A stretch of DNA of 21,811 bases, taken from positions 1 through 21,811 of IMG/VR virus record IMGVR_UViG_3300000571_000003; one strand, written 5' to 3'. Below, in pieces: positions 3,969 through 18,523 of this stretch. A program made the translations under genes and the position numbers. Below the pieces are notes generated by a model. It ran no database searches, was not told the DNA's origin, and saw only the letters and a program-made list of their open reading frames with translations. Position 1 is the stretch's first letter. Every line of letters begins with the position of its first letter. This DNA is from a virus. Taxonomy: Duplodnaviria > Heunggongvirae > Uroviricota > Caudoviricetes.

Positions 3969-4796
3969 TTATGACTTATCTTTAATAAATTCTTTAGGAA
4001 TTCCACCGAGTGGATACGTTCTACCCTGTTTATCAATATGTCCTACAAATATATTTGTGTCTACAAGAAATGGAAACTCCATCTCCTGATATTTATCCCA
4101 TCCTGCTTTTTTAAATATACCATCTTTCATGAGTCTCGTACACCACTGTAAATCAGTTGTTCCAGAAAGCCTTACAAAACCATCTGTAGCGTTCCCAGAG
4201 CTCTTATCAGGCATTTCAAACACTCTTCTTGTAGTTATACCATTTACTGTATATTCAGGACTTTCATTCCATAATGCCTTAATAATTGATCCGTGAATAA
4301 GGGTAAATCCAAATGGTATACCGTCTACCCAAACCTTATCCCCAATCTTAAAATCTCTAAACGCTCCACTTCCTCTACCACGATACAATATTGGTTCAGT
4401 TGGTTGTGATTTCGTAAAATATAGCCCTGAGACAATAGGAACATCACCCTTCTGCATATACTGATTCACTCTCACAAAAGCATCGTCTGGAATCAAATTA
4501 TCTTCCTCTATAGAAAGCATCCACTGGAAATCACCCTCAACGCAAGCCTTAGCAATAAGATTTTCTGCATCTGGAAGAAGGTATTCAACTGGTGCAAAGG
4601 CAGACATCCATTGTAACATTTCAACGTGAGACCAATTAGTGGGGATAATCTGACCGTATCTGTGTAGGACCCACTCCATTCTTACGGTACCTGTTGATGG
4701 AGTTGCTATGAGAATTCTATTATGCCAGTCTCCAGTATTTTTTATTAATCCCTTTGGTGGTTTAATAACTTCTTTCTCTACTATTTTTTTCTTCAT
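3969..4796 (-). CDS. GT-A fold (GT2-like) glycosyltransferase
   Basis: ILIATP strand at the N-terminus, LSIEEDNLIP (DxD-like acidic motif), VPIVSGLYF, GIPFGFTLI and late VGHI, as in phage GT2-like proteins. Confidence 0.7.
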   Translation of the reverse strand: MKKKIVEKEVIKPPKGLIKNTGDWHNRILIATPSTGTVRMEWVLHRYGQIIPTNWSHVEMLQWMSAFAPVEYLLPDAENLIAKACVEGDFQWMLSIEEDNLIPDDAFVRVNQYMQKGDVPIVSGLYFTKSQPTEPILYRGRGSGAFRDFKIGDKVWVDGIPFGFTLIHGSIIKALWNESPEYTVNGITTRRVFEMPDKSSGNATDGFVRLSGTTDLQWCTRLMKDGIFKKAGWDKYQEMEFPFLVDTNIFVGHIDKQGRTYPLGGIPKEFIKDKS

Positions 4797-11828: not shown

Positions 11829-12430
11829 AAACCGGCAATAACCCGTGCCATTTCGGGGGTAGGAATAAAACCCTACCGGAGAGAGAAGGAGCTAGATCTC
11901 TATATTTAAGATAAATTCAAATTCTTAAATATTCTTGATATTATTTTGGTAAATTCTTCATATCCGTGAGCACTTTTCATCTTATTACACGTAGAGCAGC
12001 ACGGCAAAACATTACCTACCTCATAACCGATAGAACTATCTATTCTGTCAACACCCATTGTGGGTGAATTTATTCCACAGTAGTGACATTTACTAGAAAC
12101 CAACACAGATAAGGTGTCTACAGATATACTAAATGCCAATTTTCTTAATCTAGCATTCTTTGTATAAACATAATATCTACCCCTCACTGTCTCCCTTCTG
12201 TATCTGTTAACCCTTATTTTTTGACAGTCTTTACAAATACTTTTCCTAGAGTTTTTACTGTGACTTTTATTTAATGGAAAGAATTCACGTTCTTTATATT
12301 CGTCACATACCCGACAATGCAATCTTTCCTTTAACTTTTTTTCCATAATACAGAGATCTAGCTCCTTCTTTTTGTGATTTATTGTCCCACCCCTCCGTAG
12401 GACATTCCTAGCTCAACGAGAGACTAGGAA
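11829..12430 (-). ncRNA. Unassigned structured RNA between the MCP and the next gene, with an HNH ORF in one stem-loop
   Basis: Hairpins at 12405-12430, 12383-12404, 11858-11877 and 11829-11857, plus an 18-bp perfect inverted repeat at 12352-12369/11884-11901. Manual pairing only. Confidence 0.5.
11906..12346 (-). CDS. Zn-binding HNH-type (His-Me finger) endonuclease, 146 aa
   Basis: CxxC...CxxC N-terminus; CHYCG...GVDRIDSSIGY...NVLPCCSTCNKMK. Confidence 0.8.
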   Translation of the reverse strand: MEKKLKERLHCRVCDEYKEREFFPLNKSHSKNSRKSICKDCQKIRVNRYRRETVRGRYYVYTKNARLRKLAFSISVDTLSVLVSSKCHYCGINSPTMGVDRIDSSIGYEVGNVLPCCSTCNKMKSAHGYEEFTKIISRIFKNLNLS

Positions 12431-12444
12431 AAACAAGCTGTATT

Positions 12445-12993
12445 CTACGACGTGACCCCTTTTAAAAGGGCATGTTTAGCGCTCTGCGCTCTCTGCAAAC
12501 CTACTTCACTAAGATATTGATCAACAATACCGTCTGCGTCTGGCGCTTGGATGTTGGTCTGAAGTTGCGTATCGCGATTATTCATATAGCGATAGGCAAA
12601 ACATTCCATATCAAGCATAAACGCATAACCGGCATAATCTTCGACAAACAATGGATTATGAACAATGTTCACTGTTCCAAATGCTGTCTGCCATTGGCTG
12701 ATCTTCATACCGTATGTGGTGTCCAATGGTTTTGTGAGAATCTGTCCACGGGCGATTTCATTGATTGCCTGCAAGACGACACCGCCTGCAAAAAGCATCT
12801 TTGTATCATTACCGTAGGTAAATCCTTCACGTAGGAACGTGTTCAAATCAGGAGCAGTCAATGGACCGCCTTGGTTCTGAACATACGAGTTACCACCCTC
12901 GATGAACTCTAGCATACCGCCAGTGGAACGTCGTGGATGGCTCTGTGTTCCTGTGTCTGAATTTTTTTCACTGAACCAGAATGCACGTTCAAT
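12445..12993 (-). CDS. MCP exon 6 (IERAFWF... to stop)
   Basis: The track ORF starts at TTG 12996, whose G is the intron-terminal G; there is no independent start. Confidence 0.88.
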   Translation of the reverse strand: MERAFWFSEKNSDTGTQSHPRRSTGGMLEFIEGGNSYVQNQGGPLTAPDLNTFLREGFTYGNDTKMLFAGGVVLQAINEIARGQILTKPLDTTYGMKISQWQTAFGTVNIVHNPLFVEDYAGYAFMLDMECFAYRYMNNRDTQLQTNIQAPDADGIVDQYLSEVGLQRAQSAKHALLKGVTS

Positions 12994-15900
12994 CAATTTT
13001 GTTATTACCCATTAAGGGTAGGTTGATCATTTCTGTCAACCTCTCTATGTCGCCATAGAGTTCAGACTATATCATTATCCATTTTAATGAACTTCCCTCC
13101 AACCCTATCTCTGCTATTCGCAAAAATAGACATCTTCTGTTTTGTTTCATCTGTTATGGATATACCTCGTTTAGTCGTTGAACCTGGAAATAAAACCTTA
13201 TATTCTTCAAGTCTATTTTGCTTTCTTCCTATATTGAAGTATAGACCGTTTTCTATAAAGCTTTTCTTATTAAACGTAAATTTAGCGAAAATCTTACCTG
13301 ACTTTAATATCTCTCTAGTGATTACTCCAACCCTTATACCATTATTTTGGCAGAAAGAATGAAGTTCATATACCCACAAATCACAAGCTCCTATACCTAT
13401 CTTTAGATCACATACTTTATGACCATTATAGATATGTTCTCTTGTTTTAGATACATACCCTTCACTGTCGAGTAATCCAGATATTAATTCTCTTTGTAGA
13501 ACTTTATCCCACTCAGAGAAGTCTATTGGAAGATTCTTTCTATTATGAGTGATTTCTTGAAGTATATTGCAAAACTTCACGTCACTCAATCTTGTAGAGA
13601 ACACCTTCTTATTAGCCTTAGTAAGTCTATTCTCCTCACCAATACTAACATTATTCTCACTTAACTTTTCAAGATTACTAACTGTCTTCTTTACAAAATC
13701 ATGGTCTATCGCTTGTAACATAAATGTTCTTTTGTCAGAACATATCGACCCGTCTCCTAAAAAGACTCCTAATATATACGCTAAATTTTTGTTCATATTT
13801 CCTTGGCTGCGGATTGTCCCCACTAATTCATTGTTGCTCTTTGGCAGAATTAGATACTTGGGAGTTTCCCGCAATTAAGAGTTATTTAATTATGATGTTA
13901 CCACCATAATGGACACTATTCTATCCAAAGCGTGTTCTGTTCCCTTCTTTGCTCTCTGGTAAGGAAGCATTATTGTTACATTCCATTAAAGGAATGGCAT
14001 AGTCATTTCTGCTATGCTCTACGTGTCTCCATCGTAGATCGGACTATATCATCTCCCATAGGGAGTTTAGCGTATAGTCTCTGGGGATTTAAGCACGCTT
14101 TAACAGTTTTAATTGTTCATATATCTCATGATCCCTTTCTATATAAGGGACATTTTTATATACTGCCGATCTTCTATTAAGAAACTCTTTTACAAGAGCT
14201 ACTTGTTCTTTTTTCGTTACAGTATATTCACTAATGAGATCAATGAACTTCTTTATTCGTTCAAATCCATTTACTTCCACTACCCAACTTTCTCTCCACC
14301 CTTTTTTTGATGGACGATATTTTATGTAGTGAGTAACATTGAACGATTTTAACTGTTCTGATAGATAATCTATGGTTTTTTTATCCGTGTTAGCGATAAC
14401 GACACTTGGTCTATAAGTATCTTTATAATGAGGCTGTCTTTTATCAGTCCTCTTCCAAAGACCTATATAACCTTCTCCATCAAAAAAACCTGCTATCCAT
14501 CCTATCGTACTTAGCTTTCCTGCATGATTGTCTCTATCCATAACATTATTACCTAAGAAGTAATTATGGCTTAACGAGATGTTCCAGCATATGGCTAAAT
14601 TTTACAAGGACCATTCTCTTAATCCTTTCCTCCGTAGAGGTTGGCTTCCTTCTCAGTATTACTCAAGGCAATAGTTGTCTTGAAAATCTGTTACAATCTT
14701 GACATCATTTTTAATGTCTGATAAGATTACCTTATCACTCATATTCTCATATGAGGAGCGACTATATCTTCACTAAACCTTAGTGTTCGACGTATAGTCT
14801 GTGAGAATTTAACTTAACTATATCTATGAATATCAACAAAACATGCAAATTGTGCTCTCAACCTTTTGAAACTAATTTTAACAATAAAATTTTTTGTTCT
14901 AATAAGTGTAAGGATGAATGCTGTAAGTTTTTTCCACGGCGGGTGTCAGATGAGAAAAAATGTATTATCTGTGATAATATATTTACTCCCAAAAGAGAGA
15001 GTACAAATCTATGCTCTAGAAAATGTATAGACATATCCTATAACAATAAACGTCCCAGAAAAACCGATAAGAGATATCATGAAACGTTAGCGATAAAGAA
15101 AAAATCATTAAATAAAGAACAATTAGAAATAATCTATGGTTCTATATTGGGTGATGGATTCTTATCACTACAAACAGACGGTTTCCACCGCTTATCTTTA
15201 TGTCATTCTGAGAAACAATTAGACTATTTAAAGTTCAAGATGTCTAAATTATCTATTATATTTAGACAGAAAGAACCTAATAGATTTGTAAATCCAGAAC
15301 ACCTATATAAAGATTACATCATGAAAGAGAAAGTTCAGTATCATGCTCATTCTATATCCCATCCTTCTTTAACTAATCTTTACGGAATGTGTTATAGAAA
15401 TAAGAGACAAATGATAGACAGAAGATTTTTAAATCTTATGTCTGAAACTTCTCTTCTTATTTGGTTTTTAGATGATGGATGTTTAGATAAAAGAAATAGA
15501 AATTCTATATTATGCACTAATTCTTTTTCTATTTCTGAAGTATCTGCTATAAAGAAGTGGCTTTGGCAAAGATTTAAACTTACTGCCAAAATCAGAACAT
15601 CTTCCGGATATCCAATCATCTCATTCTCTGTGGAAGAAACTCGTAACCTTGTTGATATTTTGAGGCAAAGCCCCATTTTCAATGAACTTCCTGATTGTAT
15701 GCTATATAAGCTTACAATCAGACCATATAATTAAGTTATCTTTTCTGCTGATTGACCCTATTCATAGAATTTTCAGGGTTCGCCGGTAGGTCGCCCCAGC
15801 CCGGTATCCTATCTATGACTTAACAGGTTATCCCAGCATATAGTCGAATTTTACTACACCCAGATTGGTTGTTTCAAAGTGTAGTTTGTTTGGGCAGATG

Positions 15901-18467
15901 ATCTTGTTGCGTTTACATTTCGTGCTCCAGCATTCTCTTCACTTACATTACCAACGATGAATAATCCATCGCCAGCTGCACCTGCTGCAGCAGCTGTTGC
16001 TCCATATGAGCGAGTAGCTGTAATAGATGTTGTACTTGCAATAGTCAGAACAACAAGATTTTCTCCTGTACGAGCATTCTTAATTACATCTCCAACTGTG
16101 AAGATATAAGCTGAACTTGAACCGGCACCAGTTACACTAATTGTATCAGTGCCTGCGGTATAAGTTGCACTTACGCGAGCATATCTACCACCATAGAAGT
16201 CTTCGAACCACTTAAATTCCGGATTTCCTGTAGCTCGTTTGAGCATTGAGGAACCCTTCCATCCTTTTCCATCGTATGTTTTACCTACGTTTGTAAGTAA
16301 TGTAACTAATGGATGCTTATTCTTGTGTTAACTGCATGTCGCCATGCAGATCAGACTATATCTTCACCCTTTTAAAAGGGGACTAGCGTGCAGTCGTTGA
16401 GGCTACCAAACATCTTCTTACCTTTCTATCTAACATAAAGAAGAGTCCTGCATTAAAGAAACTTATTGGTTTTACATTAAATCTACAGAATATTTTTCCA
16501 TTTTTTGTTATAAATTCTTCCATTTTTAATGGTATAACATTTAATGATATCAACATATTTCTAAATTCAATTATCCATGTAGATTTTATTCCTCCAATAC
16601 CAATTCTATACTGAAATAATCCTGGATATTTTTTTCTTTCAGTCTTACTTATCCATCCATCTCCATCCATTACACCAGCAATAAACCATTTTTTTATGTT
16701 TAATTCAGAATTTAATATCTGTATAGGAATCTTAAATTTATCTTCTGTTATTTTTTTAAAAAATTTTGCATATTCACCTATACCAAGTTTTATTACATAC
16801 CTATCACTCTTATTCCAACCTTTTCTTTCACATCTTTTTCTTAAATATGCTTTTGTAGTTGGTATAAATATTTTCCAATATTCTAATACTCTTTCAGCAA
16901 AATCCTTATCAATAACTTGAAGATTGAAATTACATTCTGTAATTGATGCATCTGTTAAATAAACACCAATTAAATAAGCAAGTTCTTTATGCTCTATTTG
17001 GTCTTGCCTGCTGATTGTCTCTAAAACAATATTTTTACACTTAGGTAATTGATCTTTCATATATACTTATTATAGCACATTCTTAACTACTTGTCAAGTA
17101 TATATACGAGAGTTTCCAGCATATAGCTAGTTTTCCTTATAATCTTAATGCTCTCCCATTATTACTAATAGGCGACCCAATAAGTCTAGGTTCAAGCAAG
17201 AAGATCTTATCTGTAGCATCGACGATTAATCGTCCCTCTGCATCAGATGTGGTAGTTGTTCGCCCTGCATTTGCTGCTGTTAATGTAATTGCCGCTCCCT
17301 GGTCATGGGTCGGCTCGGTGTAGTGATTGATATTTTCTAAGGAATAATTATTTCCTACCTACGCTCTCACGTAGGATTAGACTGGCTCATCATTGTTTTT
17401 TGAACAATGTTTCACGTACAGTCGTTGAGGTTGACACTGTTTTGGTTTTGTGTTATAATAGATATATAAAAATTAATATCTATTTTATGAACAAAACATG
17501 TAAATTCTGCAATAAATATTTTATAGCAGAGGGTAAAAATTCATGGAAAAAATTATTTTGTAATGTGATCTGCCAACAAGAATTTTGGTCTATTCAAAGA
17601 AACAAAACAGGTATAAAGAATAAACCATCTAGAGATCTTGCCAATCGATATAAGAGTAACATTCTTACTGACAAGCAAATACAAATATGCTTAGGAGGAA
17701 TGATGGGTGATTCATCTATTAATATTAGACCAAACGGAAGGTGTAGATTATTAATGAATCATTGTGAAGCTCAAAACAAATATTTAGATTGGAAGAAAGA
17801 TATATTATATCCTTTTATCATCCAAGCTAAGGCAAATATTTGTCTTAATAAAGATAGGGTAATCAATGGAGTAGAGATAAACTCTACGCCTTCCTACCAT
17901 TACGCAAGTATCCAACATCAATATTTTACAGATCTTTTTGGACTATTTTACACAACATACCTAGGAGAAAAAAGAAAGAGAGTAAATATGAACATATTAA
18001 ATATGTTACAGCCACTAGCTATTCTTATTTGGTTCCTAGATGATGGTTGCTACTATTCTCAACCAAAGCATTCATCACACACCATGTATCTATCGACATA
18101 TCGCTATACATTAGGAGAACATCAAACCATGAAAAAATGGTTCTGGCATAAATGGAGAATAGAAATGACTATTACTCCAACAAATCAGAATACTAAATTC
18201 ATATTACGTATGAATAAAGAAAATATGATTAAGTTTAATAACTTATTCTTATTCCAATTTAAGGATGATGTACCGGAATGTATGCATTACAAATTCCCGA
18301 ATTTTTAACAGTGCCTTACCTGCGGATTGTGATTATCCATGAAATTATTAGGGTTCGCTGCAAGATTACTCCATACAGTATCCTATCCATGGCCTAACAT
18401 CGGTTCCCCGCATATAGTGAAATTTTACATCCGCGCTACATTACGTTCACGGATAAACATTAGGCAT
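12445..18467 (-). CDS. Major capsid protein, 420 aa after splicing: join(18467-18449,17324-17188,16321-15878,14690-14622,13967-13923,12993-12445)
   Basis: Exons total 1263 nt and join in frame: MPNVYP-Y-YTEPTHDQG...KIFLLEP|NKHPLVTLL...NPEFKWFED...QTNYT|QIFKTTIALS...GGKD|LPYQRAKKGTEHALD|IERAFWF...SEVGLQ...HALLKGVTS. Position after portal/scaffold and these motifs resemble DUF5309/SU10-type MCPs (from recall, not searched). Confidence 0.85.
12994..13922 (-). mobile_element. Group I intron 5 of MCP (929 nt)
   Basis: P1 UGGAU/GUCCA with U.G; P4 UGCGG/CCGCA; P7 GACUA/UAGUC; P9 CUCUAUG-GCGA-CAUAGAG; ends AAAAUUG. Confidence 0.9.
13062..13796 (-). CDS. Intron-encoded two-motif LAGLIDADG endonuclease
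   Basis: LAYILGVFLGDGSI and LISGLLDSEGYV; the likely start is ATG 13796, since the track start lies in P4. Confidence 0.88.
   Translation of the reverse strand: MNKNLAYILGVFLGDGSICSDKRTFMLQAIDHDFVKKTVSNLEKLSENNVSIGEENRLTKANKKVFSTRLSDVKFCNILQEITHNRKNLPIDFSEWDKVLQRELISGLLDSEGYVSKTREHIYNGHKVCDLKIGIGACDLWVYELHSFCQNNGIRVGVITREILKSGKIFAKFTFNKKSFIENGLYFNIGRKQNRLEEYKVLFPGSTTKRGISITDETKQKMSIFANSRDRVGGKFIKMDNDIV
13923..13967 (-). CDS. MCP exon 5 (45 nt, LPYQRAKKGTEHALD)
   Basis: Bounded by the intron 4 terminal G and the intron 5 P1 U.G pair; preserves frame. Confidence 0.85.
13968..14621 (-). mobile_element. Group I intron 4 of MCP (654 nt)
   Basis: P1 AAGGAU/GUCCUU; P3 UUUAGC/GCUAAA; P7 GACUA/UAGUC; P8 CUCCC/GGGAG; P9-P9.2 hairpins; ends AAUAAUG. 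Confidence 0.9.
14089..14541 (-). CDS. Intron-encoded single-motif LAGLIDADG endonuclease (150 aa)
   Basis: WIAGFFDGEGYIG motif. Confidence 0.88.
   Translation of the reverse strand: MDRDNHAGKLSTIGWIAGFFDGEGYIGLWKRTDKRQPHYKDTYRPSVVIANTDKKTIDYLSEQLKSFNVTHYIKYRPSKKGWRESWVVEVNGFERIKKFIDLISEYTVTKKEQVALVKEFLNRRSAVYKNVPYIERDHEIYEQLKLLKRA
14622..14690 (-). CDS. MCP exon 4 (69 nt, QIFKTTIALSNTEKEANLYGGKD)
   Basis: In-frame 23 codons; the 5' boundary could be 14687 instead (see findings). Confidence 0.8.
14699..14727 (+). promoter_or_regulatory. Putative sigma70-type promoter for the antisense endonuclease of intron 3
   Basis: TTGACA (14699-14704)-17 nt-TAAGAT (14722-14727) with extended TG at 14719-14720. 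Confidence 0.55.
14826..15734 (+). CDS. Zn-finger plus LAGLIDADG_2-type endonuclease, antisense to intron 3
   Basis: Two CxxC...CSxxC modules; IIYGSILGDGFL and LIWFLDDG motifs. Confidence 0.88.
   Translation: MNINKTCKLCSQPFETNFNNKIFCSNKCKDECCKFFPRRVSDEKKCIICDNIFTPKRESTNLCSRKCIDISYNNKRPRKTDKRYHETLAIKKKSLNKEQLEIIYGSILGDGFLSLQTDGFHRLSLCHSEKQLDYLKFKMSKLSIIFRQKEPNRFVNPEHLYKDYIMKEKVQYHAHSISHPSLTNLYGMCYRNKRQMIDRRFLNLMSETSLLIWFLDDGCLDKRNRNSILCTNSFSISEVSAIKKWLWQRFKLTAKIRTSSGYPIISFSVEETRNLVDILRQSPIFNELPDCMLYKLTIRPYN
15878..16321 (-). CDS. MCP exon 3 (444 nt, NKHPLVTLL...QTNYT)
   Basis: Contains track ORF 15854..16246; extends upstream in frame to the intron 2 terminal G at 16322. Confidence 0.88.
16383..17060 (-). 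CDS. Intron-encoded two-motif LAGLIDADG endonuclease (225 aa)
   Basis: LAYLIGVYLTDASI and FIAGVMDGDGWIS motifs. Confidence 0.88.
   Translation of the reverse strand: MKDQLPKCKNIVLETISRQDQIEHKELAYLIGVYLTDASITECNFNLQVIDKDFAERVLEYWKIFIPTTKAYLRKRCERKGWNKSDRYVIKLGIGEYAKFFKKITEDKFKIPIQILNSELNIKKWFIAGVMDGDGWISKTERKKYPGLFQYRIGIGGIKSTWIIEFRNMLISLNVIPLKMEEFITKNGKIFCRFNVKPISFFNAGLFFMLDRKVRRCLVASTTAR
17069..17097 (-). promoter_or_regulatory. Consensus sigma70 promoter inside intron 2 (L5)
   Basis: TTGACA-17 nt-TATAAT with extended TG; the ATG follows 8 nt after the -10 box. Confidence 0.8.
17188..17324 (-). CDS. MCP exon 2 (137 nt, ..YTEPTHDQG...KIFLLEP)
   Basis: Open frame with no in-frame ATG after the upstream in-frame stop, so it needs splicing to exon 1; the 5' boundary is inferred from P10. 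Confidence 0.75.
17431..17459 (+). promoter_or_regulatory. Consensus sigma70 promoter for the antisense endonuclease of intron 1
   Basis: TTGACA (17431-17436)-17 nt-TATAAT (17454-17459) with extended TG. Confidence 0.82.
17487..18308 (+). CDS. Zn-finger plus LAGLIDADG_2-type endonuclease, antisense to intron 1 (273 aa)
   Basis: MNKTCKFC...CNVIC; CLGGMMGDSSI and LIWFLDDG motifs. ATG 17487 lies downstream of the promoter, whereas the track start at 17400 lies upstream of it. Confidence 0.88.
   Translation: MNKTCKFCNKYFIAEGKNSWKKLFCNVICQQEFWSIQRNKTGIKNKPSRDLANRYKSNILTDKQIQICLGGMMGDSSINIRPNGRCRLLMNHCEAQNKYLDWKKDILYPFIIQAKANICLNKDRVINGVEINSTPSYHYASIQHQYFTDLFGLFYTTYLGEKRKRVNMNILNMLQPLAILIWFLDDGCYYSQPKHSSHTMYLSTYRYTLGEHQTMKKWFWHKWRIEMTITPTNQNTKFILRMNKENMIKFNNLFLFQFKDDVPECMHYKFPNF
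18449..18467 (-). CDS. MCP exon 1 (19 nt, ATG CCT AAT GTT TAT CCG T)
   Basis: First ATG after the scaffold stop; ends at the U of the P1 U.G pair. Confidence 0.7.
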
Positions 18468-18523
18468 ATAACAACTGTTATTATTTATTTACTTAAATTG
18501 TCAATGAACACCTTACCCTATTG

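Follow-up and report, generated by a model that had tools for sequence, protein, structure and literature searches.

Group I introns that appear to end in C and in A, in place of the terminal G, in an SU10-like capsid gene of a groundwater phage

The 21,811-nt stretch of DNA analysed here (positions 1 to 21,811 of the IMG/VR record IMGVR_UViG_3300000571_000003; hereafter, the window) forms the first 21.8 kb of a phage contig, 86.5 kb long, derived from groundwater metagenomes, and almost all of its genes lie on the minus strand. Among them is a major capsid protein (MCP) gene of the SU10 type, located at 18467-12445 on the minus strand and composed of six exons and five group I introns. The last nucleotide of a group I intron, omega, is a G that is regarded as universal and essential for exon ligation, and annotation tools score or assume it at intron ends. 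Comparison of the window with related sequences supports a different picture for introns 1 and 3, both of which would need to be removed at a non-G terminal nucleotide for the conserved capsid protein to be made. The layout of the gene is as follows.

18449..18467, minus strand: MCP exon 1, 19 nt, ATG..CCG U, coding for M P N V Y P and base 1 of Tyr7, which fits the homologue N-termini MPNTYPYY
17325..18448, minus strand: group I intron 1, 1124 nt, terminal C, placed by homologue junctions; P1, P3, P4, P7, P8, P9 and P9.1 located
17325, minus strand: omega position of intron 1, C (G on the plus strand), followed by exon 2 ACUACA
17188..17324, minus strand: MCP exon 2, from tblastn with intact homologues
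16322..17187, minus strand: group I intron 2, ending in G, with a sense LAGLIDADG_3 gene, from the junction scan
15878..16321, minus strand: MCP exon 3, ending ...NYT, from tblastn with intact homologues
14691..15877, minus strand: group I intron 3, 1187 nt, terminal A, from homologue junctions and the fixed-length scan; helices located
14691, minus strand: omega position of intron 3, A, followed by exon 4 CAGAUU
14622..14690, minus strand: MCP exon 4 (QIFKTT...GGKD), from tblastn with intact homologues
13968..14621, minus strand: group I intron 4, ending in G, from homologue junctions
13923..13967, minus strand: MCP exon 5 (LPYQRAKKGTEHALD), from tblastn with intact homologues
12994..13922, minus strand: group I intron 5, ending in G, from homologue junctions and Rfam
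12445..12993, minus strand: MCP exon 6 including the stop codon, from tblastn and PF17236

The junctions were set by tblastn with six uninterrupted homologue proteins, independently of the reasoning in a first-pass annotation of this DNA, and were checked by a one-parameter scan in which the length of the spliced protein was fixed and the junction was slid. The homologue alignment reads MPNVYP(Y)|YTEPTHDQG at intron 1 and ...NYT|QIFKTT at intron 3; the peptides across the spliced junctions are YPYYTEPTHDQG and NYTQIFK, respectively. The junctions of the first-pass annotation agree with this placement, and the omega nucleotides that it had proposed, C at 17325 and A at 14691, are exact in coordinate and base. 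It had also assigned a terminal G to introns 2, 4 and 5, where the junction scan does offer a normal U...G option in each case. At intron 3, the top options of the scan are only U|...A| and C|...A|, and a U/G or other terminal-G option is absent. The joined coding sequence has 1263 nt and one stop, at its end, and its 420-aa product aligns over its full length with intact homologues at 77–81% identity. Exon 6 alone matches PF17236 (SU10_MCP) with 100 bits (E=2.3e-28), above the gathering score; the intact homologue L005 scores 170.9 bits.

The residues next to the two junctions are highly constrained. The annotation had asked whether YYTEP and the Gln of TQIF are invariant in capsid homologues, and in 120 uninterrupted homologues they are, or nearly so: Q201, I202 and F203 are present in 120/120, and in the motif P-Y-Y-x-E-P-x-H, residues P6, E10, P11 and H13 are found in 119/119 and Y8 in 118/119. 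Between T200 and Q201, and likewise between Y7 and Y8, 0 of the 120 carry an insertion. Splicing at the nearest upstream G of intron 1 or intron 3 places an in-frame UAA at the junction, and ACCG|AG gives UAG, which reproduces in frame the stops that had been predicted for the nearest G sites.

These observations bear on one alternative, namely that the true 3′ splice site is a nearby G and the protein is slightly altered, by use of CAG|AUU (minus Gln201), of CAUG|AC (minus YTEPTHD) or of an upstream G with read-through of the UAA. Candidate sites do exist in frame in the window, both downstream (CAG|AUU, CAUG|AC) and upstream, and we nevertheless hold this alternative to be very improbable. 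The residues that would be lost are the invariant or nearly invariant ones, in a set of homologues free of insertions. The relatives L011 and L173 have CAA in place of the CAG, where the intron would end in A again. Read-through after upstream-G splicing was rejected as a candidate: it would shift the frame in L011 and bring in a stop in the window, the final 20 nt of the L013 intron are free of G, and the homologues carry no insertion. In addition, P10 covariation, described below, sets the register at +1. The codons that would be skipped vary almost only synonymously. At site 3, the first ten 3′-exon codons of four A-ending genes differ by 17 extra codon types that are synonymous and by 3 amino-acid changes, and at site 1, the nine codons YTEPTHDQG of four non-G genes hold 11 synonymous against 0 non-synonymous differences. 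Since change after the junctions is close to purely synonymous, these flanks are translated, and downstream cryptic G sites are ruled out.

Error at 17325 and 14691 in assembly or sequencing, or post-transcriptional editing of the last base to a G-like base, would also remove the anomaly, and we give either of them hardly any credence; no points in their favour were found. The first-pass annotation had called for a check on assembly error at these positions. Independent Logan assemblies from two samples span 13048-16361 and 16333-18500 and show 0 differences at a k-mer depth of ~50-68; they agree with the window at both sites, and no variant letters were seen there. The Logan samples may be the source of the window itself, so that assembly error is excluded but there is still room for a sample-specific allele. 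Independent contigs of relatives show the same terminal states. As for editing, the A sites share, by inspection, no sequence context for an enzyme, and A-to-I conversion cannot yield the terminal C.

Further evidence comes from relatives of the two introns. Their lineages were traced via the endonuclease genes, a conserved intron motif and the fetched encoding contigs; a single-sequence query with a homing endonuclease gene (HEG) found no match in viral contigs, but alignment-based searches did find relatives. In 21 mapped capsid introns, the nucleotide at -1 is U in every case (21/21), while the terminal nucleotide is G in 11, A in 9, C in 1 and U in 0. The 10 non-G introns are spread over five insertion sites. 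From these sequences, phage capsid genes thus appear to be repeatedly host to group I introns whose terminal nucleotide varies in nature and is often not G. The distribution of the non-G cases (9 A, 1 C, 0 U) may reflect a preference for purines at omega, or merely a bias toward G-to-A mutation.

At the NYT^QIF site, three orthologues of intron 3 end in A (L010, GCAA|CAG; L011, UCAA|CAA; L173, ACAA|CAA) and four end in G (L172, L174, L078 and L076). The P1 helix is CUACACU/GGUGUAG in most of them and, with compensatory changes, UUCACU/GGUGAA in L010; P10 is either CAGAUU/AAUCUG or CAAAU/AUUUG, which are again compensatory. The first exon base pairs with the guide base beside P1 in all members at this site, G and A alike. 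The N-terminal site exists in two forms. In form 1a (CCGU^AY UAC), the window intron ends in C, that of L013 in A, and those of L019, L156 and L080 in G. The A junction of the L013 type recurs in L014, L015, L020, L163 and L166, from other samples, for a total of six assemblies. In form 1b (CCGUAU^UAUAC), L012 and L164 end in A and L161 in G, and P10 varies by a compensatory pair (UAUACA/UGUAUA versus UAUACG/CGUAUA). The recurrence of A at omega together with compensatory changes in P1 and P10 answers the comparison with orthologous introns that the annotation had suggested. In short, G, A and C replace one another at omega from one close relative to the next, with P1, P10, P7 and the exon frame remaining fixed.

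Forms 1a (window, L013, L019, L156 and L080) and 1b (L012, L161 and L164) are inserted in the same Tyr-Tyr codons, at points that lie 2 nt from each other. Their endonucleases are related, and P1 and P10 are re-registered to match the insertion point, an apparent case of intron sliding or retargeting.

Two further A-ending introns belong to other insertion sites. L010 carries at 4479-4701 (minus strand) a 223-nt group I intron without an open reading frame (ORF), at TEP^THD, which scores 66.6 bits in Rfam, above gathering; it ends AAAUA|ACACAU, with a terminal A and a P10 of 6 bp. A G located 12 nt upstream, at the end of its P9, would add 4 aa in frame and is unsupported by P10. L170, which is the same contig as L078, holds an orthologue of intron 2 at LEP^NKH that reads AAAUA|AAUAAG where the window reads CACAAG|AAUAAG; its sequence indicates that omega has changed from G to A in yet another intron family. 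In a maximum-likelihood tree of the HEGs, G-ending members are basal in both families, and at least 3 omega changes are needed in each.

Some of the material recovered in these searches stands apart. The 5′ end is missing in L016 and L017, and their G ending was inferred by homology alone. The matches to the motif pattern in L162, L165, L168 and L169 were set aside as other or unrelated introns. L011 has an intron after ...LLE(P), with the 5′ splice site GCUAGAGC|GAACAU, which apparently has C and not U at -1; it ends in G.

An inactivating mutation would look just like the loss of omega-G, and non-G introns that no longer splice would mean a dead capsid gene in a decaying or defective phage, as the first-pass annotation had considered. 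We find this very hard to sustain. The six exons are all open, and a search for a second MCP copy across the 86.5-kb genome found none, leaving the gene at 18467-12445 as the sole capsid gene. Contig depth is ~50-68x in two samples. The non-G ends are kept, with compensatory guide changes, across phages whose HEGs are only 46–65% identical, and six assemblies of different samples contain the L013-type A junction. The codons that flank the junctions are mostly synonymous in their variation and hence under purifying selection. A private mutation fares no better than general decay, given that diverged orthologues also end in A.

How the 3′ splice site could be set without a terminal G may be sought in the guide helices. 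The relevant elements of introns 1 and 3 are these.

18428..18440, minus strand: internal guide of intron 1, with UGUAG (18440-18436, P10), an unpaired C and GCGGAUG (18434-18428, P1)
17379..17425, minus strand: P7 of intron 1, ACGACUG / CAGUCU, enclosing the P3 3′ strand and P8; G-C guanosine-binding pair and bulged C
15854..15877, minus strand: guide region of intron 3, with UUGAA (15877-15873, extended P10), AAUCUG (15866-15861, P10) and GGUGUAG (15860-15854, P1)
14759..14803, minus strand: P7 of intron 3, CACAGACUAUA / UAUAGUCG, that is CAGACUA/UAGUCG, enclosing the P3 3′ strand and P8; G-C binding pair and bulged A

Intron 1 has a P1 of 7 bp (UAUCCGU/GCGGAUG) with a U.G at the splice site and, one unpaired position away, a P10 of CUACA/UGUAG, in exactly the register found in its omega-G orthologue L019. 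In intron 3, an 8-bp P1 (CUACACU/GGUGUAG), with a U.G wobble at the 5′ splice site, directly abuts P10 (CAGAUU/AAUCUG), which is extended by a second helix of 5 bp (UUCAA/UUGAA). These pairings are as described in the first-pass annotation. Throughout the intron 1 and intron 3 families, P1 has 6-8 bp and is adjoined by a P10 of 5-7 bp, except in L172, where P10 has 3 bp. The annotation had stated that the G-C pair of P7 looks intact in all five introns, and this is borne out in introns 1 and 3, the two inspected; P7's guanosine-binding site is alike in omega-G and non-G relatives. A P9.0 pairing or a change in the core (P7 and its neighbours) that consistently tracks omega was not found in the mapped members. 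We also rejected the notion of a 3′ tail of fixed length acting as a ruler: the tail has 15 nt in 4/8 mapped members of the intron 1 family (window, L013, L156 and L080), and those of the intron 3 family have 6-9 nt.

The core helices were placed by hand: P3, P4, P7, P8 and P9 in both introns, and also P6 in intron 3. P3 and P4 differ in a compensatory manner between the two. The Rfam model RF00028 gave no match over the window at the gathering threshold. The 3′ half of intron 3 scored 38.3 bits (E=4.8e-07), below gathering, and intron 1 did not match. The weak scores are likely due to the endonuclease genes of 0.8-0.9 kb, which interrupt the model; introns of these capsid genes that lack a HEG reach 66-88 bits.

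Introns 1 and 3 are also the only introns of the window with an antisense gene. The genes and their predicted promoters are the following.

17487..18308, plus strand: antisense Zn-finger LAGLIDADG_2 HEG of intron 1, 273 aa, PF03161 E=3.7e-26, identical to P0038
17431..17459, plus strand: predicted sigma-70-like promoter of the antisense gene of intron 1, TTGACA-17-TATAAT with TG, 12/12 matches
14826..15734, plus strand: antisense Zn-finger LAGLIDADG_2 HEG in L6 of intron 3, 302 aa, PF03161 E=3.2e-28
14699..14727, plus strand: predicted sigma-70-like promoter of the antisense gene of intron 3, TTGACA-17-TAAGAT with TG, 10/12 matches

The two endonucleases match LAGLIDADG_2 (PF03161) with 99.2 and 92.5 bits (gathering cut-off, 25), share 26% identity and both have an N-terminal Cys-rich region. 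The coincidence of antisense endonuclease genes and non-G ends, to which the annotation had drawn attention, holds in the window but is not general. Antisense HEGs are found in six orthologues that end in G (L019, L156, L161, L078, L172 and L174). Conversely, the HEG-less 223-nt intron of L010 ends in A. The intron 2 orthologue of L170 also ends in A. Sense-oriented genes of the same LAGLIDADG_2 family exist in orthologous introns as well, in L076/L077 (NYT^QIF) and L080 (N-terminal); the introns of L076 and L080 end in G. The presence of sense and antisense copies in orthologous introns indicates that the orientation of the endonuclease gene was flipped during evolution.

Both predicted promoters are embedded in conserved intron RNA, such that the same bases are part of the ribozyme on one strand and of the promoter on the other. 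In intron 1, the promoter sits inside the conserved motif just 5′ of P7, ~106 nt from omega; in intron 3, it lies within P9.2 plus the 3′ tail and is 8 nt away from omega. Constraint by the promoter was therefore rejected as a general cause of the omega change, considering the two distances.

It could be argued that splicing depends on a helper, with the ribozyme carrying out the first step and ligation at a non-G nucleotide requiring a protein that holds the 3′ splice site, either the LAGLIDADG protein of the intron acting as maturase or an RNA chaperone from the host or the phage. It amounts to a variant of the explanation that we prefer, in which the introns are excised at their own non-G ends, and is compatible with it; as a separate account, we consider it rather unlikely. 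We know of no maturase that substitutes for omega recognition. The 223-nt intron of L010, which ends in A, codes for no protein, and omega-G is common among the antisense-HEG orthologues. On the other side, introns 1 and 3 of the window each encode a LAGLIDADG protein with a strong predicted promoter, LAGLIDADG proteins serve certain organellar group I introns as maturases (review, PMC3984707), and reduced splicing efficiency was noted by the authors who described the hexacoral ND5-717 intron (PMC6545197), which also lacks omega-G.

Taken as a whole, the evidence makes it likely that introns 1 and 3 are real group I introns, mobile and located in a single essential SU10-like capsid gene, and that they are excised exactly at C and A. 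Of the interpretations offered in the first-pass annotation, a non-canonical or relaxed second step is thus retained as the best reading, and decay of a defective prophage is not. In the mechanism that we propose, free guanosine would start splicing and the first step would be canonical. The 3′ splice site and the scissile phosphate would then, in the second step, be set by the long P1-P10 duplex and not by base-specific recognition of omega. The terminal nucleotide would sit in the G pocket without the usual base-specific contacts (base triple), and exon ligation would tolerate a non-G nucleotide, probably at a lower rate and possibly with a protein helper. We further lean, by a modest measure, toward the existence of a clade of phage ribozymes in which omega recognition in the second step has been relaxed or lost, the pocket being kept for the free G of the first step, the long P1-P10 setting the 3′ site, and omega being G, A or C.

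Several points weigh against this explanation. Classical mutagenesis of the Tetrahymena ribozyme reportedly found that, when omega-G is changed to A, exon ligation suffers severely if the G-binding pair is not altered as well, and that pair is unchanged in the non-G phage introns. A severe ligation defect is hence to be expected, which makes the non-G pattern of the phage introns worthy of attention. Comparison of P9.0 and of the core sequences points to no structural basis for omega tolerance. The terminal C of intron 1 is a single case so far. The relatives are all metagenomic contigs. Finally, none of the RNA runs checked for the 6.1-kb gene carries it.

Comparable systems differ from the phage introns in informative ways. 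In engineered Tetrahymena ribozymes, G264-C311 is said to have been changed to A-U in combination with omega-A, upon which the terminal A serves exon ligation; the binding pair had to change there, whereas the non-G phage introns keep the G-C pair. The T4 introns td, nrdB and sunY presumably share several traits with them: the phage setting, an endonuclease ORF placed in a peripheral loop, a P7 of the type ACGACU...AGUCU and a 3′ tail downstream of P9. All T4 introns end in G, however, their GIY-YIG or HNH genes are on the sense strand, and the choice of their 3′ splice site depends on omega-G together with P9.0 and P10.

The mycobacteriophage LittleE has a group I intron in its capsid gene with a LAGLIDADG gene on the bottom strand, and its splicing was demonstrated by RT-PCR and N-terminal protein sequencing (Pope et al. 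2013, PMC3706429). It has U at -1, and differs from the introns described here in its canonical terminal G, in being a single intron and in belonging to another capsid family. The sole published natural exception to omega-G found in the literature searched is the mitochondrial ND5-717 group I intron of hexacorals, among them sea anemones, corals and corallimorphs; its exons are perfectly ligated in vivo without omega-G (PMC6545197). The likeness lies in a natural group I intron without a terminal G, with ligation demonstrated in vivo for ND5-717 and predicted from sequence for the phage introns. ND5-717 is obligatory and vertically inherited, resides in mitochondria, has a giant P8 insertion with host genes, at times back-splices and lacks an active homing endonuclease. 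The phage introns, in contrast, are mobile and optional, interrupt an essential late gene, have HEGs in L6 and vary between G, A and C at omega, with one case of a terminal C. Antisense genes and non-G ends go unmentioned in a review of the group I introns of bacteria (PMC3984707), and other recent texts describe omega-G as universal.

If such a clade exists, these introns would represent the first mobile, bacterial-world case of relaxed or lost omega recognition and the first natural terminal C. In practice, the boundaries of phage introns would not be callable by the G rule. Natural ribozyme pairs that differ mainly at omega may be used to test the roles of P10 and of the G pocket in 3′ splice-site choice, and ribozymes with a programmable 3′ end would be useful in the design of trans-splicing systems and circular RNAs. 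The question is also raised of whether slow or assisted ligation is tolerated or, instead, used to time capsid synthesis.

The capsid introns are optional, being absent from most homologues. A search with exon 6 retrieved nine related viral contigs, the majority with an uninterrupted gene. Against phage records, megablast returned nothing more than a single chance match of 34 nt, and tblastn with exon 3 as query returned no match. An intron-less allele of intron 4 is seen in a 629-nt contig of depth 4, which joins 13967 to 14622 and belongs to a relative present at low abundance in the same samples. Over the conserved intron cores (window positions 13012-13215, 14032-14235 and 16276-16479), the depth of the source-sample contigs is up to tenfold higher, and dozens of short contigs link such cores to unrelated flanks; the latter implies that many more related group I introns exist in the same groundwater communities. 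Directly downstream of the capsid gene (window positions 11906-12346, minus strand) lies a small Cys-rich ORF with a weak match to Stc1 (E=0.0044).

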